Part shown: piece by piece, positions 1 to 62,413 of the stretch | Position numbering within the stretch: the first letter of the stretch is position 1 | Layout: every line of letters starts with the position of its first letter | Source: a bacterium | Lineage (GTDB): Bacteria > SAR324 > NAC60-12 | Assembly: GCA_965233585.1 (NCBI GenBank) | Contig: CBDDTI010000745.1 | Span: 448,001 to 512,000 of the forward strand | Direction: 5' to 3' | Length of the DNA: 64,000 nt | The notes under the pieces: model-generated | The model's input: only the letters and a program-made list of their open reading frames with translations | Database searches by the model: none | Told to the model about the DNA's origin: nothing | Translations under genes and position numbers: made by a program

Positions 1-60
1 GCCAACCAGATTTACCTAATGCAAGAAAAAGCAGGAGTCATTCAAATCATTGCTCCCTAA
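1..60 (+). CDS. 3' end (partial, runs off window) of a DUF3782-like / PD-(D/E)XK family gene or remnant
   Basis: Frame 1 reads ANQIYLMQEKAGVIQIIAP-stop, homologous to the C-terminus of 58823..59503 (EEGIYLFQEQAGELQVITS). Bases 1-54 are identical to 61053-61106. Confidence 0.7.
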   Translation, partial: ANQIYLMQEKAGVIQIIAP

Positions 61-306: not shown

Positions 307-509
307 CAAAAAAACAAATCCGCAGTGACGACTTGAGTTTGACAGAATAACGACTTGAGCTTGCTAGCTTCCCCTCAAATTTACTTCTTTTTTCAACTTT
401 TTTGAAAAATTTTTAAAACCCCTTAAATTTTTTTCAAAAACCCTCAAACCCCCGTCTTTCCTAACCTCCCAGTCTGATCCTTTTTCAACTTTTAAAAATT
501 TTGGCATTG

Positions 510-809
510 TTAATTAATAAGTGATAGCTGATTATTCCGTTTTGCCATGAACAAAAGAACAGAATATTGTAATGCTTTAAGAGACTTGCTGTAACATTTG
601 GTTTTCCTTCTCATTCTTGCCAAGAAATGTCTCAAGAGAGAATTATACCCTTCTACCGTGTATGTTTCTGCCTTGGAACATGTATGAATTTCTTTGGGAA
701 TGACTTGTTTGTAAGCCTTGCAGTGATCAGTCATCACCTGAAGAGGTTTTGTTTCCTTGACCTTGTCCCATAAATGCCTACAGGCTTTTGAGTCTCTGTT
801 TCCAAGCAT
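510..809 (-). CDS. insB: IS1 InsB-like DDE domain, fused to InsA by -1 frameshift
   Basis: VMTD..AY and ETYTVEGYNSLLRHFLARMRRKTKCYSKS motifs typical of IS1 transposases. Confidence 0.88.
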   Translation of the reverse strand: MLGNRDSKACRHLWDKVKETKPLQVMTDHCKAYKQVIPKEIHTCSKAETYTVEGYNSLLRHFLARMRRKTKCYSKSLKALQYSVLLFMAKRNNQLSLIN

Positions 810-1192
810 ACAATTGATAAATTGCTTCCCACGTCTATCAACAGCAATCCAGAGCCAGCAGTAGTTTTTTTTGACTGGATGTAGGTGTACATTTCATCAA
901 TTTCCATAATTTCAATGTCTGTGTCCTTTCTTAATGCCTTGAGCTGTTCGCCAAAACTACAGACCCAATTATAAACTGAAACATGAGAACAATTCAGCAA
1001 ACGACCGATTGACCTGAAACCAAGACCCTCCAAATACAACTCTAATGCTCTTCTTTTGATCTGTGGTGAGATTTGACCACGATAGGACTTGGTATATTGA
1101 TAGTTGCAGGCATTGCAACGCCTCCTCGGTTTACCATATAAAAAACCATTCTTAACCGTCTTCTCACTTTCACATCTAGGACACGACTTCAT
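734..1192 (-). CDS. insA: IS1 InsA-like protein (Zn ribbon + HTH), N-terminal part of a frameshifted transposase
   Basis: CPRC...CNAC zinc ribbon, ALELYLEGLGFRSIGRLL HTH, and EIDEM just before the QSKK slippery site. Confidence 0.88.
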   Translation of the reverse strand: MKSCPRCESEKTVKNGFLYGKPRRRCNACNYQYTKSYRGQISPQIKRRALELYLEGLGFRSIGRLLNCSHVSVYNWVCSFGEQLKALRKDTDIEIMEIDEMYTYIQSKKTTAGSGLLLIDVGSNLSIVCLETETQKPVGIYGTRSRKQNLFR

Positions 1193-1261
1193 TGCTACAC
1201 CATGACTATCAATTCAATTAAATGAACTTAATATCGCATATCACTTATAGTTTAACAATAC

Positions 1262-1495
1262 CCTAAAATCCAAAACCTAGCTTTTACAAAAAAGCTGGGT
1301 TCTTTTCTTCTCACTCTCAAGGTTAAAGATTTTGTTTTTCAGAAAGATGGACTCAACGTTTACTCTTCGTTGACGGTCAATTTGATTGTGACAGAATCTG
1401 ATGTTGGCATGGGTAAAATGATGGGAAAAGTAGGCGGGTCAGTCGTTACAACCACTTTGACAGTAAATTCTCCTGGGTCTTCAAAAATAAATTAG
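1262..1495 (+). pseudogene. 3' remnant of an unknown gene abutting the IS end
   Basis: A reading frame with no upstream start is open from the IS terminus (PKIQNLAFTKKLGSFLLTLKVKDFVFQKDG...NSPGSSKIN-stop). Confidence 0.4.
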
Positions 1496-22145: not shown

Positions 22146-24074
22146 ATGCAAAAAGTCATTGTCATTGGAGGAGGTTTGGCAGGTTTGGCAGCAACCATGA
22201 AAATTGCTGAACAGAAAATGCCTGTCGCCCTTATCTCATTTTTACCCGTCAAACGTTCTCATTCTGTTTGTGCGCAAGGTGGTATTAACGGGGCAGTTAA
22301 CATCAAAGGAGAAGGAGACTCTCCAGACATTCATTTTTACGACACGGTCAAAGGAGGGGATTTTCTTGCACATCAGCCTCTATGTAAAGACATGTGCGCC
22401 CATGGTCCATTCGTGATTAACCTCATGGATCGGCTGGGTGTCCCATTTAACCGTACATCTGAAGGAAATTTAGATTTTAGGCGATTTGGTGGGACGTTAC
22501 ATCATCGCACTGCATTTTCTGGTGCAACAACAGGTCAGCAGTTGCTTTATGCACTTGATGAACAAGTACGTAAATATGAAGATGAAGGTTTGGTTGAAAA
22601 GATGGAATGGCACGAATATCTTGGAGCAGTCTTAGATGATTCAGGGGTTTGCGTCGGTGCCGTCGTTCATAACTTGCGGACGTCAACCATCACAACATTG
22701 CGAGGTGCTGCTGTGATTCTTGCAACAGGTGGTCCGGGTTTGGTTTATGGTCGTTCTACCAATTCGGCAGTCTGCACAGGGACGGCAGTCACTTCAGCCT
22801 ATCTACAAGGTGCAAAATATGGCAACGGTGAGTTTATCCAGATTCACCCTTCTGCAATACCGGGACAAGATAAACTACGTCTGATGAGTGAGTCTGCAAG
22901 AGGTGAAGGCGGAAGAGTTTGGGTGCCAAGAAAAGCGGGGGATTCAAGACCACCCAAACAAATACCAGAAGAGGAAAGATTTTATTTTCTTGAAGAACGT
23001 TATCCTTTGTTTGGAAATCTTGTGCCGCGCGACGTGGGATCAAGAGAAATTTATGATGTGTGCGTCAATTCAGGTTTAGGCGTCGGGGGAGAAAACAAAG
23101 TTTATTTAGATTTGACCCATCACTCAAGAGAGTTTTTAGATAGAAGACTGGGAGGAATTTTGGAAATTTATCAAAAATTCACTGGTAGCGACCCCCGTGA
23201 GCAACCAATGGAAATTTTTCCTGCTGTGCATTATTCAATGGGAGGAATTTGGACAGACTACCAACGTACTGAAGATGGTTTCATTGACCATTCTTCACCA
23301 CGTAACCAGATGACTTCTATTGAGGGACTTTATGCCGCAGGTGAAGCGGATTATCAGTACCACGGAGCCAATCGTTTAGGTGCAAACTCTCTCTTGAGTT
23401 GCATTTATACAGGTCTGATGATGGGGCCGGGCGTTGTGAATTATGTTAAAAGTTGTTCAAAGGCGGTAGATGATTTAAGTTCCAATGTTTACGATTCATA
23501 CGAAAAGTTATGGCAAGGTCATTTTGATTCTATCAAACAGATGAAGGGCAAAGAAAATCCTTATGCACTCCATGAAGAGCTTGGAAATTTGATGATCAAT
23601 AACGTCTTGATTGTCAGGGACAATGCAAAACTAAAGAAAACATTAGATTTAATTGAAGAAATAGAAAAACGTTGGCACGATATAGAATGTGTTGACACTC
23701 AAACTTGGAGCAATCCCACGCCAAGCTATGTCAACCAACTTTACAATATGATTCATCTTTCTAAGATCATTGCTAAAGGAGCATTGATGCGTGATGAATT
23801 TAGAGGTTCTCACTACAAACCAGATTTTGATTTGCAACAGCCTAAAGATTTCAAACCCGATTCTTATTTAGAGTATCTGAAGCTAAAAACAGAGAACATT
23901 GCCCTTGATGATAAATTCAAACCTGAACATTTAGAATACATGAGACGATTTGAAGCAAATAATGACCAGTGGCTTAAATCAACCATTGCATCTTATCAAG
24001 ACAACCAACCAAAAATCACTTATGAGGAAGTAGATACGTCTCTTATTACACCACGTCCTAGAAAATATGATTGA
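22146..24074 (+). CDS. sdhA: Succinate dehydrogenase flavoprotein subunit
   Basis: GGGLAG, RSHSVCAQGGIN, HYSMGG, HGANRLGANSL. Confidence 0.97.
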   Translation: MQKVIVIGGGLAGLAATMKIAEQKMPVALISFLPVKRSHSVCAQGGINGAVNIKGEGDSPDIHFYDTVKGGDFLAHQPLCKDMCAHGPFVINLMDRLGVPFNRTSEGNLDFRRFGGTLHHRTAFSGATTGQQLLYALDEQVRKYEDEGLVEKMEWHEYLGAVLDDSGVCVGAVVHNLRTSTITTLRGAAVILATGGPGLVYGRSTNSAVCTGTAVTSAYLQGAKYGNGEFIQIHPSAIPGQDKLRLMSESARGEGGRVWVPRKAGDSRPPKQIPEEERFYFLEERYPLFGNLVPRDVGSREIYDVCVNSGLGVGGENKVYLDLTHHSREFLDRRLGGILEIYQKFTGSDPREQPMEIFPAVHYSMGGIWTDYQRTEDGFIDHSSPRNQMTSIEGLYAAGEADYQYHGANRLGANSLLSCIYTGLMMGPGVVNYVKSCSKAVDDLSSNVYDSYEKLWQGHFDSIKQMKGKENPYALHEELGNLMINNVLIVRDNAKLKKTLDLIEEIEKRWHDIECVDTQTWSNPTPSYVNQLYNMIHLSKIIAKGALMRDEFRGSHYKPDFDLQQPKDFKPDSYLEYLKLKTENIALDDKFKPEHLEYMRRFEANNDQWLKSTIASYQDNQPKITYEEVDTSLITPRPRKYD

Positions 24075-37660: not shown

Positions 37661-38955
37661 ATATCTAAACGGATTGATTGTAACGAGTTGAACTTTTCAT
37701 TCATGGAGTATTTTTTTCTTATTTTTCTAAATTGATTAATTTCAGGATAACCTTGTTCAAAAACCTCTTGACTCACACGAGAGTCCTTAGACAAATAGAT
37801 ACGACCTCTATACTTTACAACGATTTTATCTAAACGATTTAGCAATTCAAAAATTCCTGTTTCCATTTTAAAATCTAAGGCTAAGCTGTATCCTTTCATT
37901 GGAAAAGATAAGTAATTTTGATTTGCTTCACCGTAAAGTTTAAGAACAGCTAAAAACGACCCCTTCCCAGATTTTGAAATTTCTTTTAGTATTTGTTCTA
38001 ATCCTATGAAACTAGCATCTTTTGGTAAAATAAATTGGTATTGTATAAAACCATTCTTGCCATAAATTCTATTCCAATGAGCAATAGAATCTAAAGGAAA
38101 AAAGAATTTATCTATGTCAATTTTTTGATTTGATATAGGTGTCTCCATTCTAGAGTAATACAAATAATTAAAAGCTTTCACTGTCAATGAATTTAGAAAA
38201 AAAGAAGAGAAATAAAATGGGATGCTGATCTTTTTTTTCACTTGATAATCCAATACACCATCACTACTAAAATCACCTACCATTAACAAACACCTTCCTA
38301 GATTAAAGCCCTTTGCCAAACAGTCAATCCATGCAACAGAATAAGACGCATTCTTATATTTTTCAAATGCCTCAAATGTCTCCTTTAAATTTTCAGTTTT
38401 GATTGTTTGTTGGTTAATATACTTTGACTGAATTTTTGTAAGTTGAATCTTAGCATCAAGAATAACACCAGTTAAGCCCATACCTCCACAGGTTGCAAGA
38501 AATAGCTCTAAGTTTTCTTTTCTGCTACATCTAACAACACTTCCGTCTGGCAACATGAGATGAAACATCTCCACGCACTCACTAAAACAGCCTTCTCTGT
38601 GATGATTTTTACCATGAATATCACTAGCGATTGCCCCTCCGATAGTAACAAATTTTGTGCCTGGTACAATTTTTAAAAACCAACCCTTTGAAATAAAACT
38701 ATCAAGAATTTCCGAAAGTAAAACACCAGACTGAACATGTAATATTCCAGAAAGTTTATCAAACTCAAGAAATAATTTATTCGGTCTCATTTGAATCTGT
38801 TTTTTACTTAATGCACTATCTCCATAACTTCTACCATAACCATAAGAGATAAGATTATGATTTTTTTTAATAATGCAACTTAAATCTTGATAATTATTAA
38901 AGTTTAGAATTTGACTATTAATTTTGGGATAATTACCCCAACTTTTTAAGGACAT
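37657..38955 (-). CDS. FAD-binding oxidoreductase, DprE1-like
   Basis: GRSYGD, PGTKFVTIGGAIASDIHGKNHH, YSVAWID, LALDF, YLSKDSR. Confidence 0.9.
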   Translation of the reverse strand: MSLKSWGNYPKINSQILNFNNYQDLSCIIKKNHNLISYGYGRSYGDSALSKKQIQMRPNKLFLEFDKLSGILHVQSGVLLSEILDSFISKGWFLKIVPGTKFVTIGGAIASDIHGKNHHREGCFSECVEMFHLMLPDGSVVRCSRKENLELFLATCGGMGLTGVILDAKIQLTKIQSKYINQQTIKTENLKETFEAFEKYKNASYSVAWIDCLAKGFNLGRCLLMVGDFSSDGVLDYQVKKKISIPFYFSSFFLNSLTVKAFNYLYYSRMETPISNQKIDIDKFFFPLDSIAHWNRIYGKNGFIQYQFILPKDASFIGLEQILKEISKSGKGSFLAVLKLYGEANQNYLSFPMKGYSLALDFKMETGIFELLNRLDKIVVKYRGRIYLSKDSRVSQEVFEQGYPEINQFRKIRKKYSMNEKFNSLQSIRLDI

Positions 38956-38962
38956 AACACTT

Positions 38963-39853
38963 TTAAAAATAAATAATAAATGTGAAAGAAACTACCCATA
39001 GCATTAAATTAATTTGTGTAAATCTATCATAAAATAAAATTTTTACAGGAGAGGCACTTTTTTCTTGTACAAAAGTTATTTGGAGATAATTCATAAATCC
39101 TAAAATAACAAAAAATGATGTTAAATATAGGTATTGATGTTTTACATTTAGCAAAACATCATTTGAAATAGTATAAATAATATAAGAAATGATTGTAACC
39201 GATGCTGAAATACTTATAAGTGAGTCAATAAATTTTAAATTATAACCATTTAAAGAAACTCTTATTTGTTCATTGCTTTTTAAAAAATAAACAACATCAT
39301 CTCTACGTTTTGTTAATGCTAAAAATAAAGAAAGCAAGAAAGTCATAATCACAATCCATTTGGACAAATCCACAGAAGATACTAATGACCCAACAAAAAG
39401 CCTTAAAATAAATCCAATAGCAATTATTGTAATATCCAACAAAGCTATTCTTTTTAAATAATAGCTGTATAAAAAATTTAACACAACGTAACCAATAAAC
39501 AATATCAATACTTCATATGATAGAAATATCCCTGTAATAGTTAAGCTAATAGTGAGTATTAAAAAAGAACAACTTAATGCTAAGCGTATAGAAATTTGAC
39601 CAGATACTAAAGGGCGATATTTTTTAATAGGATGTAATTGATCTGAATCAATATCACAATAATCATTAAAAATATAAATAGCACTTGCTACCAGAGAAAA
39701 TAAAACAAATGCCATTCCAACATTGAAGATAGATTCAAATACAACTATTTGACCACTAAAAAACACGGGAACAATAATAAATACATTTTTAGAATAATGA
39801 GAAACTCTCATTATTCTAAGTAAAGGTTTTAAAGTATCTTTTGACTTTTTCAT
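38963..39853 (-). CDS. UbiA-family polyprenyl-phosphate phosphoribosyltransferase
   Basis: R..HY.KN, YIFND..D...D..HP.K..RP, YS..LK, KRR motifs of DPPR synthase-like enzymes. Confidence 0.88.
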   Translation of the reverse strand: MKKSKDTLKPLLRIMRVSHYSKNVFIIVPVFFSGQIVVFESIFNVGMAFVLFSLVASAIYIFNDYCDIDSDQLHPIKKYRPLVSGQISIRLALSCSFLILTISLTITGIFLSYEVLILFIGYVVLNFLYSYYLKRIALLDITIIAIGFILRLFVGSLVSSVDLSKWIVIMTFLLSLFLALTKRRDDVVYFLKSNEQIRVSLNGYNLKFIDSLISISASVTIISYIIYTISNDVLLNVKHQYLYLTSFFVILGFMNYLQITFVQEKSASPVKILFYDRFTQINLMLWVVSFTFIIYF

Positions 39854-39906
39854 AACATCAACACACCATATTTACTTTTCAATTTAGGATATTTTGAATT
39901 AGGGAT

Positions 39907-41394
39907 TTAATAGTCATAATTCGGAAAACATTGATTTTCTATCAACCCAAATTGTACAGACACTAAAAAAGGATTTGTAATTTGAGGTCTATCACCAGGC
40001 AGAATATTTTTTATACGGTAATATTTATCTTTTTTTATATCTAGTGTATTTGATTCTTGAAAACATCTAGAGACATCCTTATAAAGTTGTAAAATTTCCT
40101 CATATCTATCATCATTTATAGATCCTTGATATGTTTTAATTAGGTAAACATATTGTCCTTTGTCTATTGATAATCTAGATTTCACGTTGGATACGTAATA
40201 AGTTTTATAATTTTTACTACTAAAATGAAAGTATATCGTAGGATCATATGTTACAATTATTTTATTTTTTGAGTTCCCTATCAATTGGAATAATTCAAAT
40301 ATTGGCAAATTATAAGAATTTTTTCCTGTATTTGACCTTGTAACTAAGTTTATTACCGAAACTACTGATAGTAGCAACGCAGAAACAAAACATATTTTTC
40401 TAAAGGTAGCTTGTTTAACACAAGAAAAAAAGTAAGATATTGTGAAGTAAAAAGGTACTGAAAGCGAGATACTATTGCGATATTTTCCTCCAATGCCTGA
40501 TATAATCATCAACAAAGACATAACTAAAATTAAAATCAAACTTTGTGTGATGACCAAAGGTCTATTTTGACTATAATTTGATAGTCCTGATATTACAACT
40601 AAAAAAATTAATATTACAAAAGCAAAAAAATATGGATTTGCTATAAAAACACTACCTCCATTTACTATTCCATAAGCAACATTGAATATAGAACTTAATA
40701 AGCTAGAAGTTTGACCCTGATTATTATTGAGATGAATGTCAAAAAAAATATATATCTGATAAGAACATAAAAAAATATATAAAATGGATAAAATTAAAAT
40801 ATTGTGGATAGTTAAATCATATCTTCTTACAAATAAAAAAAGAAAAAATAGAGATATTAAAAGAATAAAAGTTAAGTAGCTAATGTATGTCATCAGAGAC
40901 AAAATAACCCCTATAACAATAATATTTTTAGGTTTCAGATATTGATTTTTTAGTAAATATACATATAGCACGATAAAGAGAGCCACCCAATAGGAGTACC
41001 ATCTCATGCTATTCGTCCATAGTAGCAATCCCCCATTTAAAAAAGTAAAAATCAGAAGTAAAATTTTTGCATCATTACCTTTCAATTTATTTTCTGAAAA
41101 ATTATAAAAATAACAAATTGCACTAATGTTACAAAACATGGAAAACACTAAAATAGCTTTGTAAGACGAAAACAATTCATATATTAGCTTGTTTAAGATA
41201 TAAGATAATGGAGGGTGAACATCAGATTTTTGGAGATAAATCAACATATCACTCCAAGATTGTGATATGACTTGAATGTTAAAAACTTCATCGTCATAGT
41301 AGTGATGACGAAAGAAAATGATGGAACACGAAACCGATAAGTAAAGCGAAGCTCCTACGAACAGTAGTTTCTTAGGAGAAAGTGTAGGGACCAT
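39907..41394 (-). CDS. Polytopic GT-C fold glycosyltransferase (putative)
   Basis: YYDDE after TM1, DVHPPLSY and RWYS, about 11 TMs and a soluble C-terminus. Probable start ATG 41394. Confidence 0.75.
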   Translation of the reverse strand: MVPTLSPKKLLFVGASLYLSVSCSIIFFRHHYYDDEVFNIQVISQSWSDMLIYLQKSDVHPPLSYILNKLIYELFSSYKAILVFSMFCNISAICYFYNFSENKLKGNDAKILLLIFTFLNGGLLLWTNSMRWYSYWVALFIVLYVYLLKNQYLKPKNIIVIGVILSLMTYISYLTFILLISLFFLFLFVRRYDLTIHNILILSILYIFLCSYQIYIFFDIHLNNNQGQTSSLLSSIFNVAYGIVNGGSVFIANPYFFAFVILIFLVVISGLSNYSQNRPLVITQSLILILVMSLLMIISGIGGKYRNSISLSVPFYFTISYFFSCVKQATFRKICFVSALLLSVVSVINLVTRSNTGKNSYNLPIFELFQLIGNSKNKIIVTYDPTIYFHFSSKNYKTYYVSNVKSRLSIDKGQYVYLIKTYQGSINDDRYEEILQLYKDVSRCFQESNTLDIKKDKYYRIKNILPGDRPQITNPFLVSVQFGLIENQCFPNYDY

Positions 41395-41408
41395 TGACTT
41401 ATCGTGTC

Positions 41409-42644
41409 TCAAATATATTCTTCCACCCAAGGTAATCCGTAACGATTTAAATCCTCCATGTAGGGGTCAGGGTCAAACTCCTCCACATTATAAACTCCTG
41501 CTTGTTTCCATTGACCTTCTAGTAAAAGTTTTGCCCCAATCATCATTGGAACACCTGTTGTGTAAGAGACAGCTTGTGCCCCAAGCTCTTTAAAGCAGTC
41601 TTGGTGATTACATACATTGTAAATATACAATTTTTTCTTTTGACCATTTTTTTGCCCTTCAATCATACAACCTATGCAAGTTTTACCGACCGTTGACTCT
41701 CCCAGAGATGAAGGAGCAGGCAAGACCGCTTTGAGAAATTGCAATGGAACAATGCGATGTCCTTCATAGTTGATTGGCACGATGGAGGTCATACCAACGT
41801 CTTGCAGGACAGAAAGGAATTTGAGGTATTGGTCTGAAAAAGTCATCCAAAAACGAATCCTTTGAATTTCAGGGTAATTTTTGACCAATGATTCCAGTTC
41901 TTCATGGTAAATCAAGTACATGGAACGTTTCCCTATTTGTGGAAAATCAAAAACCTCCTTCATCTCAAAAGGCTCTGTTTCAACCCACTTGCCAGCCCCC
42001 TGATAAGGTCCTCCCTCTGCGAATTTTGCAAAACGTTTGCTTGATGGAAATTGGTCGTAATACATTCCATTTTGAGTGACCTCTCTGATGTTAATTTCAG
42101 GGTTAAAATTAGTCGCAAAAGGTTTGCCGTGGTCTCCACCATTAGCATCCATGATGTCAATATAGTCCATGGTGTCAAAGTGATGTTTTTTAGCATAAGC
42201 ACAGAAGACGCCAGTGACTCCGGGGTCAAATCCTGAACCTAAAATAGCAGTCAATCCTTTTTCACGGAATTTATCAAAATAGTCCCACTGTGTGCCATAA
42301 AAAAAGGTGGGTTTATCAGGATGTTCATAGCTTGCAGAATCAATATAATGCGTCCCTGTTTCAAGGCAAGCGTCCATGATGGTCAGATTGTGGTAAGGCA
42401 TGCCTGTATGAATCACAAGCTGGGGTTGTTGAGCCTGAAATAAAGCAACCAGTTCTCTAGTGTTGGAAGCATCTACTTGAGCAGTTGTAATATTGGGATG
42501 CCTGAGACAGCTTTTGACTTCCTCACAGCTTTCTATCCTACGGCTTGCCAAACAAATCTTTGAAAAGACATCAGGCAGTCCTGCACATTTTTTGGCTGCC
42601 ACACTTCCCACTCCACCAATCCCAATAATAACAACTGAACTCAT
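41409..42644 (-). CDS. Carboxy(nor)spermidine dehydrogenase/synthase (saccharopine dehydrogenase family)
   Basis: IIGIGGVG, GSGFDPG, GDHGKPFATNFNPEINIRE, HEELESL, QAVSYTTGVP. Confidence 0.92.
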   Translation of the reverse strand: MSSVVIIGIGGVGSVAAKKCAGLPDVFSKICLASRRIESCEEVKSCLRHPNITTAQVDASNTRELVALFQAQQPQLVIHTGMPYHNLTIMDACLETGTHYIDSASYEHPDKPTFFYGTQWDYFDKFREKGLTAILGSGFDPGVTGVFCAYAKKHHFDTMDYIDIMDANGGDHGKPFATNFNPEINIREVTQNGMYYDQFPSSKRFAKFAEGGPYQGAGKWVETEPFEMKEVFDFPQIGKRSMYLIYHEELESLVKNYPEIQRIRFWMTFSDQYLKFLSVLQDVGMTSIVPINYEGHRIVPLQFLKAVLPAPSSLGESTVGKTCIGCMIEGQKNGQKKKLYIYNVCNHQDCFKELGAQAVSYTTGVPMMIGAKLLLEGQWKQAGVYNVEEFDPDPYMEDLNRYGLPWVEEYI

Positions 42645-52155: not shown

Positions 52156-53130
52156 ATGGAACAACAAGACTTTGACTTTTCTAAGTGTCTTTCCTTTGAA
52201 GACAAGAAAGCCAATTTGTTGTTAAGCCTTCAAGGTCACAGGTCAAAATATAAACGATTGGCATTGTCTCCGATACGTTATGCAGGTGGCAAAAGTTTGG
52301 CAGTTGGCTATGTGATAGAGGAACTTCCTCAAGTCAAAAGAATCATCTCTCCATTTTTTGGTGGGGGCAGTGTGGAAATTGCCATTGCCCAAAAATTAGG
52401 TATTGAGGTCATTGGTAGTGACATTAACATAGACTTGGCGAATTATTGGCATCATCAAATCAATGAACCTGCAGTACTTTATGAAGGACTAAATAATCTT
52501 GAACCCACTAAAAAAGAATATAATCGTGTCAAAGAAATTTGCAAATTACATAGAAAAGGTCAACTTGAATTGTCTAAGTTAGACCAAGCTGTTTATTTTT
52601 TCTTCAATCATAATTTGTCCTATGGACCTTCTTACATAGGTTGGGCATCAAATGTTTACTTGAATGAAGGCAAGTATCAAAAAATGCTAGAAAAGGTAAG
52701 AGATTTTGATGCGACTATTCAAGTTACTTGTGAGACTTTTGAAGTCATGTTTCAAAAATACCCAAATGACTTTTTCTATTGTGATCCTCCTTACTTTCTA
52801 AAACAAGATGATTCAACTAGCCAAATGTTTGCAGGAATTTACCCAGAACGTAATAATCCTTTTCATCATAAAAATTTTGACCATGAAAAACTGCGAGATT
52901 TATTAAATCAACATCAAGGAGGCTTCATTGTTTCTTATAACGATTGCTCAAAAAGTAGAGAGTATTATAAAGACTATACTTTAAAGTATCCTTCTTGGCA
53001 GTACACGATGGGGCAGGGAGAAACCAGAATCTCAAAAATTCTAGGAAACAGAGATATTGAAAACAATCATTCTCATATTAAAAAATCACACGAAGTACTG
53101 ATACTTTCCTCATTGGAAGCTCTCCGATAA
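52156..53130 (+). CDS. DNA adenine methyltransferase (D12/Dam-like class), no adjacent REase
   Basis: SPIRYAGGKS, SPFFGGGS (motif I), YCDPPY (motif IV). Confidence 0.92.
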   Translation: MEQQDFDFSKCLSFEDKKANLLLSLQGHRSKYKRLALSPIRYAGGKSLAVGYVIEELPQVKRIISPFFGGGSVEIAIAQKLGIEVIGSDINIDLANYWHHQINEPAVLYEGLNNLEPTKKEYNRVKEICKLHRKGQLELSKLDQAVYFFFNHNLSYGPSYIGWASNVYLNEGKYQKMLEKVRDFDATIQVTCETFEVMFQKYPNDFFYCDPPYFLKQDDSTSQMFAGIYPERNNPFHHKNFDHEKLRDLLNQHQGGFIVSYNDCSKSREYYKDYTLKYPSWQYTMGQGETRISKILGNRDIENNHSHIKKSHEVLILSSLEALR

Positions 53131-56737: not shown

Positions 56738-56819
56738 GCGAGAGTGGCGGAATTGGTAGACGCACCAGATTTAGGATCTGGCGCCGCAAGGTGTGGGAGT
56801 TCGAGTCTCCCCTCTCGTA
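56738..56819 (+). tRNA. tRNA-Leu (anticodon TAG), CCA not encoded
   Basis: Acceptor GCGAGAG/CTCTCGT, D-loop GGAATTGGTAGAC, anticodon arm CCAGA-TTTAGGA-TCTGG, long variable arm, GTTCGAG T-loop. Confidence 0.97.
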
Positions 56820-57392: not shown

Positions 57393-58040
57393 TTATTTGC
57401 ATTCAACAGTTTGACCAGACTTATTTAATAGTTCCTTCCAATTTTCCATATGATGATTTTTAATTTCTGTTGAAGATTTTGCATCATTGATTAAGTTCTT
57501 AGTATACGTATCTAAAAATATTTTATAATCATCTATAAATCTCAAATAGTATTTAATGCTCATTAAAATACCATTAGCAATAATATCAATATTTTGAGTC
57601 ATTTTAATCTCCAAAATCAAATCATTTACCTCATTTTCAATTTTCTCATTTGCAAATCCATTTTTAAAAGTAGTCAAAATGTAGTAACGATCTACTTGAA
57701 CATTTTCTAATTTTTTGACAATATCCAAAATCAAATCTTTTGTAATAGGAATATTGTGCTTGATCTCAATGATTTCAAAAGGATTATCTTCGTAATCATA
57801 GATTTCTATATCTCCAAAGCTGTGTTTATCAGAGGCTGTATGAACTTCTAAAGGGATTAGCTTTTTGTACTTATATCTGGAGAGAACTGGAATTAAAATT
57901 TCATAAATAGAATAAATTGCAATCACAGGTAATCTTGAACTGGTTTTATTGCTAAAGTGTTTATCTAGCATTTCAAGAACCCCGTTAATATTTAAAGCCT
58001 CTTTAAGTTCTATTTTCTCAAGAGATTTAAAATTTTTTTC
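57393..58040 (-). pseudogene. 5'-truncated PD-(D/E)XK restriction endonuclease-like gene
   Basis: GDIEI...EIIEIKH catalytic-type motif and very AT-rich. The frame stays open for 23 codons upstream of the called ATG, right up to the IS end. Confidence 0.65.
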
Positions 58041-58110
58041 GGTATTGTTAAACTATAAGTGATATGCGATATTAAGTTCATTTAATTGAATTGATAGTCA
58101 TGGTGTAGCA

Positions 58111-58569
58111 ATGAAGTCGTGTCCTAGATGTGAAAGTGAGAAGATGGTTAAGAATGGTTTTTTATATGGTAAACCGAGGAGGCGTTGCAATGCCTGCAAC
58201 TATCAATATACCAAGTCCTATCGTGGTCAAATCTCACCACAGATCAAAAGAAGAGCATTAGAGTTGTATTTGGAGGGTCTTGGTTTCAGGTCAATCGGTC
58301 GTTTGCTGAATTGTTCTCATGTTTCAGTTTATAATTGGGTCTGTAGTTTTGGCGAACAGCTCAAGGCATTAAGAAAGGACACAGACATTGAAATTATGGA
58401 AATTGATGAAATGCACACCTACATCCAGTCAAAAAAAACTACTGCTGGCTCTGGATTGCTGTTGATAGATGTGGGAAGCAATTTATCAATTGTGTGCTTG
58501 GAAACAGAGACTCAAAAGCCTGTAGGCATTTATGGGACAAGGTCAAGGAAACAAAACCTCTTCAGGTGA
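58111..58569 (+). CDS. insA: IS1 InsA-like protein
   Basis: As copy 1, with two amino-acid differences. Confidence 0.88.
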   Translation: MKSCPRCESEKMVKNGFLYGKPRRRCNACNYQYTKSYRGQISPQIKRRALELYLEGLGFRSIGRLLNCSHVSVYNWVCSFGEQLKALRKDTDIEIMEIDEMHTYIQSKKTTAGSGLLLIDVGSNLSIVCLETETQKPVGIYGTRSRKQNLFR

Positions 58570-58793
58570 TGACTGATCACTGCAAGGCTTACAAACAAGT
58601 CATTCCCAAAGAAATTCATACATGTTCCAAGGCAGAAACATACACGATAGAAGGGTATAATTCTCTCTTGAGACATTTCTTGGCAAGAATGAGAAGGAAA
58701 ACCAAATGTTACAGCAAGTCTCTTAAAGCATTACAATATTCTGTTCTTTTGTTCATGGCAAAACGGAATAATCAGCTATCACTTATTACTTAA
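58494..58793 (+). CDS. insB: IS1 InsB-like DDE domain
   Basis: As copy 1. Confidence 0.88.
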   Translation: MLGNRDSKACRHLWDKVKETKPLQVMTDHCKAYKQVIPKEIHTCSKAETYTIEGYNSLLRHFLARMRRKTKCYSKSLKALQYSVLLFMAKRNNQLSLIT

Positions 58794-58822
58794 CAATGCC
58801 TATATTTTTAAGGAGACAAACA

Positions 58823-59503
58823 ATGACTGATGAAGAATTAAAAGAGCTGGTTGCTTCTAATGCAAAGGCAATCGCAGAGCTGACAAAGAAGCAAGAAGAA
58901 AATGCCAAACGACAAGAGGAAAACAGCAGGCAGTTGGAAGAACTGACAAAAAAGCAAGAAGAAAATGCCAAACAGCAAGCCGAAACCACTTTGCAACTTC
59001 AAGAACTCAGACCAGCAGTTGCCAGCATGATGCGGGGCATTCAGAAGATGGAAAACTTCATCAGCAATACTTCAGAGATTTTAGAAAATCGTCTGCGCCG
59101 TTCTGTGGAACAAGTTATAGAAAAAAATGGTTTCATTGAAATTGGTGGCATTCGCTACGACGAAGTGGAACAAAACCTCAAAGGGAAAGATAATGGCATC
59201 ACGGCTCAATATGACCTCGTACTGTTCAGTAAAACAAAGCATCTGCTTTTGATAGAAGTCAAACGTAAGCCTCATGTTAAGGATTTCCAACAAGTGTTTC
59301 GGCAGAAAGAGACCTTCCCTAAATTGTTTCCAAGTTATCAAGACTATACAATTCACTGTGGTTTAGCTGGAGAAATCTTTTATGAGGAACTCATCAGTGA
59401 GGCAGAAGAAGAAGGCATTTATCTTTTTCAAGAACAAGCGGGAGAATTACAGGTCATTACTTCTTCTTCGCTGCAGCTACAGCTGGAGGCAATAGAATCC
59501 TGA
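58823..59503 (+). CDS. Coiled-coil + PD-(D/E)XK nuclease-fold protein (DUF3782-like)
   Basis: RBS AAGGAG then ATG 58823 (MTDEELKELVAS...). Duplicated ELTKKQEENAK unit and QYDLV...LIEVK motif. Confidence 0.78.
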   Translation: MTDEELKELVASNAKAIAELTKKQEENAKRQEENSRQLEELTKKQEENAKQQAETTLQLQELRPAVASMMRGIQKMENFISNTSEILENRLRRSVEQVIEKNGFIEIGGIRYDEVEQNLKGKDNGITAQYDLVLFSKTKHLLLIEVKRKPHVKDFQQVFRQKETFPKLFPSYQDYTIHCGLAGEIFYEELISEAEEEGIYLFQEQAGELQVITSSSLQLQLEAIES

Positions 59504-59556
59504 AAATTCGTTTTCTGCTAGGGAGAGGTTTGCAAATGGTTCTCACCAAAACATGA

Positions 59557-59622
59557 ACTGAAGAGCTTGGTTCGTATCTTTTACAGACCAAAGCAGATGA
59601 AGTAGAGGTAATTTGTCCTTCT
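59557..59622 (+). pseudogene. Short C-terminal remnant of a DUF3782-like paralogue
   Basis: TEELGSYLLQTKADEVEVICPS aligns to AEEEGIYLFQEQAGELQVITSS. The DNA resembles 60793-60845. Confidence 0.6.
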
Positions 59623-59735
59623 CACAAAAGCACCTCCAAAGAACAACAACAGAGATATAGAACAAGTCTAAATGAGCAAGTAGAAGAAGTTTTTAATGAA
59701 TTTTTGGATCAACGAATTTCAAGGAAAAAAGAAAG

Positions 59736-60626
59736 ATGATGCGATTTTTAGACATGAAGACAGATTATGCCTTCAAGATGGTGTTTGGCAGTGAGCAGAA
59801 CAAAGACATTTTAATCAGCTTGCTCAATTCTATTGTTCACTTTGAAAATGACCACAAAATCAAAGACTTAACTTTGCAAGACCCCTACAATCTGCCTTTG
59901 TTAGAGGGCATGAAAAACTCCTTTGTAGATGTCAAAGCAAGGTTAGACAACGGCAAGTTAGTCATTATTGAGATGCAGGTGCTGAAACATGAAGGTTTTG
60001 AGCAACGAATCCTTTACAATGCCTGTAAGAATTATTCTGCACAACTCCAAGAAGGAGACCCCTACCAGCTCATCAATCCTGTCATTGCTTTGAACTTTGT
60101 CAATTTTGTCATGTTTGCAGAAAATGAGCAGCTGATTAATCACTTTCAGTTATTAGAAAAAACACTTTTCACCCGTTATTCTGGAGACATTGAACTGATT
60201 TTTGTAGAATTGCCAAAATTCCAGAAAAGATTAGAAGAGTTGCGAGAATTGAAAGAGCAATGGATTTATTTTGTCAAAAATGCAGAACTGCTGCATGACA
60301 TTCCAGAAAATCTTGATTCGCACATCCAAAAAGCATTGGTGCAAGTTAATACTGCTGCAATGACACCACAAGAATTGGAGAGAATCTATAAGCGGAGAGA
60401 ATTTTCTGTCGTCATCAACAGTGTTAAACATCAGAGCTTTCAAGAAGGCAGAGAGGAAGGGCTTGAGAAAGGCAGAGAAGAAGGTAGAGAAGAAGGGCTT
60501 GAGAAAGGCAGAGAAGAAGGTCTTGAGAAAGGAAAACTTGAGATTGCCCACAAAATGTTGGCATCTGGCACCGATTTAGAGACTGTTTGCCATTTGACAG
60601 GACTCACCAAACAACAACTTAAATAA
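59736..60626 (+). CDS. Rpn family recombination-promoting nuclease / PD-(D/E)XK putative transposase
   Basis: FLDMKTDYAFKMVFG, VDV, IIEMQ, FVELPKF, EGREEG repeats and C-terminal IAHKML...TGLT. Confidence 0.93.
   Translation: MMRFLDMKTDYAFKMVFGSEQNKDILISLLNSIVHFENDHKIKDLTLQDPYNLPLLEGMKNSFVDVKARLDNGKLVIIEMQVLKHEGFEQRILYNACKNYSAQLQEGDPYQLINPVIALNFVNFVMFAENEQLINHFQLLEKTLFTRYSGDIELIFVELPKFQKRLEELRELKEQWIYFVKNAELLHDIPENLDSHIQKALVQVNTAAMTPQELERIYKRREFSVVINSVKHQSFQEGREEGLEKGREEGREEGLEKGREEGLEKGKLEIAHKMLASGTDLETVCHLTGLTKQQLK
60442..60533 (+). repeat. 12-bp-unit coding tandem repeat (EGRE/EGLE/KGRE)
   Basis: GAAGGCAGAGAG/GAAGGGCTTGAG/AAAGGCAGAGAA reiterated about 7 times. Confidence 0.85.
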
Positions 60627-60666
60627 TAAACTCACTTATGAAGCGTCAGACAATGTAGTGCTGTAA

Positions 60667-60850
60667 CTGAACGATTTTGGACAACTGCTTAAAAAAAGAG
60701 AAAGTTTTGTCAAGATTTTCAAAGATTACGAAGGGTTTCAGGTTCATCTGGGATTAGCAGAAGAGACTCTTTGTGAGGAGCTTTTGACAAAAGCTGAAGA
60801 GCTTGTGTCTATCTTTTGCAGACTCAAGCAGATGAGATAGAAACGTCATT
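60667..60850 (+). pseudogene. C-terminal remnant of a DUF3782-like paralogue (frameshifted)
   Basis: LNDFGQLLKKRESFVKIFKDYEGFQVHLGLAEETLCEELLTKAEEL / VYLLQTQADEIE aligns to the C-terminal third of 58823..59503. Confidence 0.75.
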
Positions 60851-60909
60851 TTTCAACTCGTCTTTGACATCTGTGCCTCTTTTTTACGTTTTAACCTCAA
60901 ACTAAAAAT

Positions 60910-61112
60910 GTAGAGGTCAAAAAAATGACATTGACCGGATTTTAAAACAAAAGCAAACCTTCCCTGTTGTGTTTCCTCACTTCAAAAATTTTACCTTTCA
61001 TTCAGGATTAGCCAGTGAATCTTTTGACAAAGATTTGATGCAAGAAGCCAAAGCCAACCAGATTTACCTAATGCAAGAAAAAGCAGGAGTCATTCAAATC
61101 ATTGCTACTTAA
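60910..61112 (+). pseudogene. C-terminal remnant of a DUF3782-like paralogue
   Basis: VEVKK / NDIDRILKQKQTFPVVFPHFKNFTFHSGLASESFDKDLMQEAKANQIYLMQEKAGVIQIIAT-stop. Confidence 0.78.
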
Positions 61113-61150
61113 TAGTTTACTCTCATTCCTTCCCCCATTCACTACACATG

Positions 61151-62413
61151 CTACATACGAAAACTTTTGAGTGTTTTTGAATTGAATGACTCCTTGTCTT
61201 CGTATGCCTGATTGAGTCTGTCCATACAAGACCTAAAAACCTTACCGACAGCAGATGCGGGGTGGATTCTGTGGTCATGGTTAAAATTGACCAAAAACGT
61301 CATATATTCTCCAAATTTCTCTAGCTCTTGAAAATAGAGATGAATCAAAGCAACCAATAAAGTTGCTCGCATGTAGGAAGCAGGGTTGAGTTCAGGCAAA
61401 ATCTCTTTTAAAAGATTCAATGTTGTTCTGAGGTCTGCCTCTGCCTCTTTTTTAGAGCCTTGCTCCATGAACAATTCTGCACGAATGAGCAGTAAAAAAA
61501 TCAGCTTTCTTTTCTCTTTAATATTTTGTGAAAGTTCAAAACACAAAGTGTGAGCCTCTATTGCAAATTGATAGGCACAAACAGCACTCTGAAGGTCACG
61601 TTGGTCTGAAAATAAGTTTTCTTGTATCCCTTGAATTTGGGACTCTCTTTGAGAATACTGACCTGTCCACTTTTTTGTAAATGCTTGTAAATAAGATTCC
61701 CAACGGATTGAAGGAATATCTTGGTAATCTTTTTTAAATAAAAACCAAGAGTCTGTTGCAAACAAGCATTGAGGACACACCAAAACTCTCAAAAAATTAT
61801 AATTGCAAAAATCAAAATCTTTGATGGCTTTTAAGTAAACAGGAATCCCAAAAATATTTTGACCTGTCAGGATAGACTTCACCCGAAGTTTCCAATAAAC
61901 GACATTTTCAGATTGACAAAGAGGACAAACCACATATCTTGGTATCAAGGAAGATAAAGTACATGGTGGCTTTCTGATGGTTTTGGCAATAAAAAGCTCT
62001 GGGTTGAGAATGCGGGGGACGCCTTGTTCTGGGTGAACATATTGCCGAAAATGCAGTTCAATCAAGAATGTATGACCTTGATGGTTTTTAATGTTGGCTA
62101 CTCGTGTAGAAATGATTTCATACCATTCTTGTTCTAAATCTTCTGAATCAGGAGTTTTAGCAAGTCGGATTTGTACAACAGACTTGCGATTTAACACTTG
62201 TTTGCAAATCAAAACACACGCCTCCCTTGACAACTGAACGCAGATAGCTTTTGCCTTTATCGCATTGTAAAAAACTTGTGTTGGAATAGATTCTACATCT
62301 TGAAGGTTATCCCAAATTCTCTGTTGCTTGGCGTCCAATTCTGATTGATTAGAGCTTAAGCTCAGCTTGATAGAATCCTTTTTATTTTGTCCCATAAAAT
62401 ACTCTTTTTGCAA
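61151..62413 (-). CDS. DUF2225-like Zn-ribbon/TPR-like protein with N-terminal extension
   Basis: VCPLC...NYNFLRVLVCPQCLFA followed by helical repeats (RDLQSAVCAYQFAI). Confidence 0.7.
   Translation of the reverse strand: MQKEYFMGQNKKDSIKLSLSSNQSELDAKQQRIWDNLQDVESIPTQVFYNAIKAKAICVQLSREACVLICKQVLNRKSVVQIRLAKTPDSEDLEQEWYEIISTRVANIKNHQGHTFLIELHFRQYVHPEQGVPRILNPELFIAKTIRKPPCTLSSLIPRYVVCPLCQSENVVYWKLRVKSILTGQNIFGIPVYLKAIKDFDFCNYNFLRVLVCPQCLFATDSWFLFKKDYQDIPSIRWESYLQAFTKKWTGQYSQRESQIQGIQENLFSDQRDLQSAVCAYQFAIEAHTLCFELSQNIKEKRKLIFLLLIRAELFMEQGSKKEAEADLRTTLNLLKEILPELNPASYMRATLLVALIHLYFQELEKFGEYMTFLVNFNHDHRIHPASAVGKVFRSCMDRLNQAYEDKESFNSKTLKSFRM

Follow-up and report, generated by a model that had tools for sequence, protein, structure and literature searches.

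The window analysed here is a 64,000-nucleotide stretch of a bacterial genome assigned to SAR324 (lineage NAC60-12; assembly GCA_965233585.1, contig CBDDTI010000745.1, positions 448,001 to 512,000 of the forward strand), and our subject is a compact array close to its right-hand end, in which one intact gene of a coiled-coil PD-(D/E)XK nuclease family is followed by three partial copies of its relatives and by a gene of the Rpn family. The intact gene occupies positions 58823..59503 on the forward strand and encodes 226 amino acids (aa), as given by the list of open reading frames (ORFs), where its frame extends upstream to 58796, and by comparison with homologues, against which the protein is full length. 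It is followed on the same strand by piece 1 (p1, 59540..59622), an intact rpn gene of 296 aa (59736..60626), piece 2 (p2, 60667..60842) and piece 3 (p3, 60924..61112). These features are tightly packed. A spacer of 33 nucleotides (nt) follows the intact gene, rpn has 113 nt in front of it and 24-40 nt behind it, p2 and p3 stand about 65 nt apart, and a further 38 nt separate p3 from a convergent gene at 61151; because the gaps measure just 24-113 nt, no N-terminal parts are hidden there. The pieces were detected in two ways, with the intact protein as a tblastn query on the window and with a 21-protein family profile run on all six-frame fragments, and the two methods agree on three same-strand C-terminal pieces of one family. 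An earlier inspection of the DNA by eye (the sequence-only reading) is upheld in this, as it is in calling the first gene intact and in placing the Rpn gene between p1 and p2. Its tally of copies fell short, missing a fourth at 1..57 on the forward strand, where the window opens on the final 19 codons of P0016, a full-length paralogue of 198 aa whose gene runs off the left edge; P0016 is encoded on the window's own contig and its end is residue for residue that of window positions 1-57 (100% over 19 aa; profile E 1.3e-4).

The protein encoded by the intact gene is predicted to begin with one long helix, at residues 3-102, and to continue in a compact alpha/beta domain. The AlphaFold2 model from which this is read was built on 15 sequences, with a mean predicted local distance difference test score (pLDDT) of 82.6 and a predicted template modelling score (pTM) of 0.58. 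Inside the gene, a 63-nt internal repeat at 58876-59001 falls within the N-terminal helix part. The catalytic residues of the PD-(D/E)XK site are D131, E145 and K147, and an alignment of 15 sequences shows no variation at D131 and K147 and hardly any at E145. A Foldseek comparison of the model with the PDB gave 11 matches at E<=0.001, all of them to PD-(D/E)XK proteins or domains, with XisH (2inb), VC1899, the nuclease domains of Card1 and Can2, AF1548 and NucS among them, while a sequence search of the PDB with the family protein gave no meaningful match. The predicted structure thus has the PD-(D/E)XK fold with a D...(D/E)xK motif, and the fold assigned by the sequence-only reading stands on structure prediction as well.

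What to call this family is less straightforward. The intact gene had been described as DUF3782-like, and this is accurate as to kind and remote relationship; the Pfam model itself (PF12644), however, does not match the intact protein even at E<=10. Its top Pfam match is HSDR_N at E 0.0063, below the cut-off of that model, and PF12644 is carried by only one distant homologue, P0015. In the nearest ESM-Atlas clusters that list these families, PF12644 is found on 14-33% of members and PF26618 on 11-29%; PF26618 was not among the matches of the local Pfam scan. DUF3782 is described as a collection of coiled-coil segments from a prokaryotic PD-(D/E)XK endonuclease family (PMC4786415). The family is a coiled-coil PD-(D/E)XK nuclease group that is remotely tied to DUF3782 and DUF8196. 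It is also a broad one: a profile search of 1.84 billion representatives returned 2928 proteins at E<=0.001, of which 1230 passed E<=1e-10, and the majority have about 200 aa. No functional description was found in the literature under the names DUF3782 and DUF8196, no defence-system model in PADLOC fits the family, and tblastn of the family protein against plasmids gave no match. Two low-scoring PADLOC matches were set aside, one to JetC (E 0.006) as coiled-coil noise and one of P0016 to CARF_PDDEXK (E 0.003) as a likeness at the level of the fold only. A broad, uncharacterised nuclease family of this type that has multiplied within one lineage is possibly a by-product of greater worth than the array itself.

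The three pieces differ in length and in preservation, and p3 is the best preserved. In a single open frame it carries the last 62 codons of a subtype-C paralogue together with their stop (the subtypes are defined below), with a tblastn match at 60927-61109 (44% identity over 61 aa, E 7.6e-15) and a profile match to positions 141-202 (60924-61109, E 6.7e-28). p2 corresponds to residues ~152-210 of a subtype-D paralogue; tblastn matches it at 60667-60801 (42% over 45 aa, E 8.8e-9), and the profile at positions 141-186 (E 3.3e-14) and then, in another frame, 187-199, the remainder at 60807-60842 having a tblastn E of 16 on its own. p1 is the shortest, with the last ~25-28 codons of a subtype-D paralogue, recognised by tblastn (59560-59622, 52% over 21 aa, E 0.42), by the profile (positions 184-203, 59560-59622, E 0.011) and by its DNA likeness to p2, of which 60794-60841 is 83.7% identical to 59558-59606 over 49 nt (E 2e-7). 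This likeness, which the sequence-only reading had noticed, also suggests that p1 starts near 59540-59551, upstream of the 59557 first proposed, so that while the piece is real its boundary probably lies near 59540. Outside the intact gene, nothing in the six-frame translation of the window matches profile positions 1-140 at E<1, and the remark that only C-terminal parts are recognisable is therefore correct. The sole other match below E 1 (22837-23064, profile positions 143-191, E 0.89) was taken as noise.

Each piece lacks what a working nuclease of this family would need. The catalytic block of D131, E145 and K147 is missing from all three, and what they cover is just the helix at 154-168, the strand at 176-182, the helix at 188-197 and the hairpin of the predicted fold. 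By sequence, p1-p3 are remnants of family members rather than members, in that none holds a complete domain. p1 has an in-frame TGA at 59554-59556, inside its start, and has lost its natural stop, so that its frame continues into a TGA that overlaps the Rpn start codon. p2 is immediately preceded by a TAA (60664-60666) and changes frame between 60801 and 60807, in tblastn and in the comparison with paralogues alike. Frameshifts had been claimed for two pieces, and this holds for p2, while a frameshift in p3 is uncertain: the confident part of p3 is a single open frame, and the case for a shift is a possible ExK remnant, VEVKK, a five-residue match at 60910-60924 in a frame other than that of p3. 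The pieces had likewise been described as start-less and outside the ORF track, as p1 and p2 are, but within p3 a GTG codon opens an ORF of 47 aa (60969-61112). None of the three was among the called proteins of the protein collection when profiles were run against its short proteins. A short AATGTAG lies just upstream of both p2 and p3, where the alignments are noisy, and may represent degenerate ExK codons or a junction motif.

The origin of the pieces becomes clearer when the close relatives are divided by their nuclease domain into four subtypes, A (P0001-P0008, to which the intact gene belongs), B (P0009, P0010, P0012 and P0013), C (P0016 and P0163) and D (P0164, P0011, P0017 and P0018). 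Identity between subtypes is 33-65%; within A to C it is 81-100%, and it is lower inside the looser subtype D. Here, p3 agrees with the C-terminus of the subtype-C protein P0016 in 56 of 62 residues, while p1 resembles P0017 (60% over 20 aa) and p2 resembles P0011 (64% over 33 aa) and P0018 (50% over 46 aa), all of subtype D. Full-length genes of these subtypes exist, with P0016 and P0163 representing that of p3 on the same contig, and P0164 that of p1 and p2. On these comparisons the array is a set of ends of different paralogues, not of alternative ends for the adjacent intact gene. At least four full-length copies lie on the window's contig, with six and three on two related contigs; an expanded tandem family had been proposed, and the expansion is evident, while a former array of full-length tandem genes would be a matter of reconstruction. 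Variation among the full-length copies is concentrated at the other end of the protein. Within subtype A, nuclease domains 89-100% identical are found in proteins of 180-241 aa, the difference in length being made up by coiled-coil repeats, and three N-terminal leader types are shuffled across the four domain subtypes, with all three carried by subtype A. Among 120 comparable protein pairs, 23 have leaders (the first 14 residues) that are >=80% identical together with domains that are <=60% identical, and 6 show the reverse. The sequences thus indicate that the family recombines at its N-terminal end, in leader and coiled coil, and not at its C-terminus; published Rpn work ties the same kind of variation to interaction specificity.

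Exchange at the C-terminus was examined in an alignment of 21 family proteins, in which the core (residues 86-150) was compared with the segment encoded by the pieces (residues 152-213 of the intact protein). None of the 210 pairs was discordant by more than 25 identity points between core and C-terminus, the largest gap being 19, and the mosaic alleles envisaged by the sequence-only reading were not seen. At the DNA level, no exact match of a piece to the intact gene exceeds 8-9 nt, while 50 shuffles of p3 gave 8.4 on average and 11 at most; matches of this chance length leave no anchor for homologous exchange with the intact gene. No inverted repeats pairing the copies were found, all pieces being direct repeats, and no partner genes fit between the pieces, the only gene inside the array being rpn. 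The comparison of p3 with the gene of P0016 is of another kind. The last 54 coding nt are identical throughout (54 of 54), followed by 14 of the next 26, and the BLAST alignment holds 72 identities in 80 positions; all 8 mismatches would be confined to the last 26 positions by chance with a probability of about 5e-5. From this skew we infer either an exchange of sequence between p3 and a full-length subtype-C gene or a recent origin of p3 as a copy of such a gene. The likeness extends beyond the stop, as p3 shares with P0016 about 25 nt of diverged 3′ flank.

These results bear directly on the second of the two readings offered at the outset, in which the start-less 3′ pieces would be a silent reservoir, kept as gene-conversion donors for the C-terminal third of full-length genes. 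The arrangement itself is suggestive, with one intact gene beside same-strand, promoter-less 3′ variants, two of which have a common 5′ boundary; the tract of identity between p3 and a full-length gene 58 kb away, giving way to divergence, makes exchange between piece and gene probable; and the family does recombine, as the leader and domain discordances show. However, the swapping that is seen affects the N-terminal leader and the coiled coil, with no discordance between core and C-terminus, and no match of the pieces to the intact gene beside them exceeds chance length. Stops and a frameshift interrupt p1 and p2, and the direct orientation rules out switching by inversion. No recombinase has been shown to act here, and Rpn is described as a non-transposase (PMC10400941). 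We therefore consider such a reservoir very unlikely, while the first reading offered, decay, draws support from the loss of the catalytic residues, the stops and the frameshift.

The array can also be set beside known systems. In silent-cassette systems such as pilE/pilS, vls and msp2, and in hsdS shufflons, an expressed gene stands beside promoter-less partial variant copies, conserved flanking blocks or inverted repeats are present, a dedicated recombination route usually exists, and the variable part is surface-exposed or a specificity domain. The array resembles these systems in having one expressed gene beside promoter-less partial variants; it differs in that neither flanking blocks, inverted repeats, a recombination route nor a surface or specificity domain was found here. 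A closer likeness is to the orphan rhs-CT and cdiA-CT modules described in PMC3967940, which are also start-less C-terminal fragments of different types on the same strand downstream of a full-length gene. As reported there, each Rhs orphan has its own immunity gene, and in Salmonella LT2 an orphan shares 522 bp at 95% identity with the main gene, which enables recombination (PMC3967940). In contrast, no immunity gene is present here, where the gaps after the pieces measure 38-113 nt and rpn is the sole gene inside; no block of near-identity is present; mosaic alleles are missing among the 21 proteins, though the subtypes occur as full-length genes; and the proteins are cytoplasmic-type nucleases of about 200 aa without a delivery domain. 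The array is also like the ordinary gene remnants of tRNA-linked islands, where truncated and frameshifted pieces of paralogues lie beside an intact copy, an insertion sequence (IS), a mobile defence gene and a tRNA gene. It departs from them in that two pieces share a 5′ boundary and all fragments found keep the 3′ end, which random decay does not predict.

Fragments of the family also occur in relatives. P0165, on a related contig of 830,719 bp, is a 40-aa fragment of subtype C, while P0168 and P0169, on a related contig of 1,073,512 bp, are 61-aa proteins of subtype B that have diverged from each other. P0168 and P0169 share an internal deletion in which the end of the coiled coil ('...RRLRKET') is joined to 'FPVVFP...', so that the whole catalytic core is gone, and the deletion is located at a short repeated K-E-T. 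The short-protein searches used the whole-family profile for proteins of 30-61 aa and a C-terminal profile for those of 22-146 aa. One possible N-terminal-only form was seen, P0011 (165 aa, on a contig of 19.7 kb); N-terminal-only proteins of 62-123 aa were not searched. Further afield, a scan of a genome collection that does not include the window's own genome or its close relatives yielded only five distant loci (24-29% identity), in metagenome-assembled genomes of Gammaproteobacteria/Pseudomonadales, each with one family gene among housekeeping genes and with neither Rpn nor fragments.

That the 3′ end is kept by all six one-ended fragments invites a further explanation, in which selfish or mobile family genes would spread from their 3′ end and often abort, leaving 5′-truncated copies beside existing ones. 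The many copies per genome, the flank that p3 retains in common with P0016 and the tight head-to-tail packing of the pieces would all fit such 3′-anchored copying. Yet the island around the array shows no evident reverse transcriptase, integrase or homing-type target, the five distant relatives carry single copies among housekeeping genes, the family has no plasmid match, and six fragments are a small sample, so that we give this explanation very little credence. Should 3′ fragments prove to predominate across the whole genome, a directed process would be indicated, and this may be a second by-product of greater worth than the array.

The Rpn gene between p1 and p2 is intact. It matches PF12784 over positions 2-218 of 229 (E 6e-48) and TIGR01784 over model positions 1-271 of 273 (E 7.2e-47; 160.5 bits, with a cut-off of 52.1), and in its C-terminal region, at 60442-60537, five overlapping copies of a 12-nt unit encode 4-aa repeats of the E-E-G-R / L-E-K-G kind, which match the hypervariable helix described for Rpn short forms. 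Its PDDEXK_2 domain and variable C-terminus with 4-aa repeats place the product, by sequence, in the Rpn (YhgA-like) family. A methionine at about residue 209 is a possible internal start. According to PMC10400941, rpn is a self-contained gene-within-gene toxin-antitoxin and antiphage gene with four-amino-acid repeats, which comes and goes as a single gene and has neither terminal repeats nor fixed ends. The pieces had been described as wrapped around the Rpn gene, and the geometry is indeed so; nothing, however, links Rpn and the nuclease family beyond position, as no Rpn-like ORF occurs among the 330 ORFs of the five distant related loci. Within the window, rpn is single-copy. Two simple histories were also set aside. 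Rpn as an insertion that split one gene was rejected, as p1 and p2 both encode residues ~188-210 and the piece that lies upstream is a tail, and a tandem duplication of a unit of gene and rpn is unsupported, the sequence after p2 being unlike the spacer after p1.

The Rpn family itself offers a precedent for a role of such fragments. Like the present family, the Rpn long/short system combines a PD-(D/E)XK nuclease, helical repeats of variable length and a separate C-terminal fragment, and there the C-terminal fragment blocks the parent nuclease (PMC10400941). By analogy with RpnS and RpnL, the C-terminal fragments here (the 47-aa ORF of p3, P0168 and P0169) might bind and damp nucleases of the same subtype; p3 has an open frame with a GTG start, and the two diverged 61-aa copies in the relative have kept their frames open without the catalytic core. 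The differences are considerable. The Rpn short form is made from an internal start in an intact gene and contains the oligomerisation helix (PMC10400941), whereas the fragments here are distinct DNA copies that carry damage and lack the coiled coil, which in this family sits at the opposite end of the protein and would be the oligomerising part. No Shine-Dalgarno-like sequence lies 5′ of the GTG of p3, no promoter-like site precedes the pieces, p1 and p2 are not translatable as such, and with a single core strand of the predicted fold the independent folding of a fragment is doubtful. Small regulators of this kind seem to us the hardest of these explanations to credit. Together with the reservoir of donors and with 3′-anchored copying, they carry a minor share of the probability.

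The array sits in a variable island of ~4.4 kb that extends from a tRNA-Leu gene to a convergent DUF2225-family gene. We consider it likely that p1-p3 are non-functional, decaying 3′ remnants of three paralogues, two of subtype D and one of subtype C, in an island prone to turnover. This rests on the restriction of all matches to the C-terminus, the loss of the catalytic residues, the frameshift in p2 and the stops that bound p1 and p2, to which are added the broken copies carried by relatives (P0165, P0168 and P0169), the context of the island (tRNA-Leu, an IS1 element abutting the intact gene, and an rpn of a kind gained or lost singly), the lack of both discordant pairs and a DNA anchor between intact gene and pieces, and the existence of the subtypes of the pieces as full-length genes (P0016, P0163 and P0164). 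In such a history, the copies of the nuclease family, which has multiplied in the lineage, would turn over fast; IS1 sits against the start of the one intact copy, and rpn would have landed among the others. Older copies would have lost their 5′ two-thirds or more, including the D...ExK motif, whether through deletion or because an incoming segment (the subtype-A gene or the rpn segment) took their place from the upstream side. The 3′ ends would persist since nothing selects for their removal, and a functional upstream neighbour would limit the position of tolerated breakpoints. Homology, subtypes, the missing catalytic part, the stops and frameshift, the setting in the island and the want of exchange signals at the boundary of the pieces are observed; that full-length genes formerly stood at the locus, and the order and mechanism of their truncation, are what we infer.

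Several observations weigh against simple decay. The sequence of p3, with its 54-nt tract of identity, points to recent gene conversion or copying rather than to long neglect, and p3 is an uninterrupted frame of 62 codons. Profile position 141 is the start of both p2 and p3, and if breakpoints were random, agreement to within a few codons would be expected only a few per cent of the time. Finally, all six one-ended fragments in the lineage (p1-p3, P0165, P0168 and P0169) are C-terminal pieces. The shared start, the open p3 with its tract of identity, the six 3′ fragments and the pair P0168/P0169 leave room for a reading in which core-less C-terminal modules are kept on purpose, as conversion donors for the same subtype or as small proteins that restrain the nuclease, comparable to the short Rpn antitoxin; we consider this distinctly unlikely. 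With decay as the probable explanation, the idea of swappable C-termini is not needed, and the finding matters mostly for annotation, marking an island in which a single live nuclease gene and a single rpn defence gene lie beside three dead gene ends.

The left edge of the island is formed by the tRNA-Leu gene (56738..56819, forward strand; ARAGORN, and Rfam tRNA at 56.6 bits). Between it and the array, in AT-rich DNA, the ORF list gives a 192-aa ORF of unknown family on the reverse strand (57393..57971), which has a D-x13-E-I-K motif and a weak match to HSDR_N_2 (E 0.027), with no PDB or PADLOC match; its sequence suggests that it may be another PD-(D/E)XK or restriction-endonuclease-like gene, or a remnant of one. 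It is followed by an IS1-family element on the forward strand (58035..58811; DDE_Tnp_IS1, PF03400, 9.1e-10, and helix-turn-helix (HTH) domains), with overlapping transposase frames at 58111-58569 and 58494-58793. Judged by similarity between copies, 11 nt separate the end of the element from the start codon of the intact gene; the terminal inverted repeat of the element reaches to 58798. A second copy lies inverted at 492..1268 on the reverse strand and is 98.7% identical over 777 nt. The assignment to IS1 follows from the two-frame DDE transposase, the visible inverted ends and the IS1 annotations under plasmid matches.

The inverted pair brackets 56.8 kb of housekeeping genes, with the same end of each copy facing outward and towards a family gene, that of P0016 (its end at 1-57) on the left and the intact gene at 58823 on the right. 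An inversion between the two copies is possible. The intact gene's own upstream region has been replaced by IS1, and a promoter-like site at 58708-58737 (forward strand, 9 of 12 matches), in the outward end of the element, points at the intact gene. Over the scan as a whole, 16 promoter-like sites were counted, as compared with 11.3 +/- 3.2 in shuffles, and none is positioned to drive a piece.

The right edge of the island is the convergent DUF2225-family gene on the reverse strand (61151..62413; PF09986, 2e-8), beyond which lie fmt and then holA. A 34-nt inverted repeat (61085-61118 and 61161-61194, 76% complementary) spans the end of p3 and that of the DUF2225 gene, and may be a shared terminator hairpin. 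The remainder of the window holds housekeeping genes, including rpoD, mreBC, pbp2, sdhCAB, the liv and dpp transporters and flgBC. As a tentative lead, the RpoD encoded here is closest to protein clusters of Thermodesulfobacteriota and Bdellovibrionota. A D12-class adenine DNA methyltransferase gene (52156-53130, forward strand; PF02086, 3.7e-26) has a dppB-like permease gene on one side and an NMN adenylyltransferase/Nudix gene on the other, and no endonuclease gene was recognised beside it. At 38000-42000 the guanine-plus-cytosine (GC) fraction is 0.28-0.31, as against ~0.40 elsewhere in the window; this stretch holds a decaprenyl-phosphate phosphoribosyltransferase-like gene and a 507-aa ORF without a family match, adjoining DprE1/DprE2-like genes, and may be an acquired envelope-glycan cluster.

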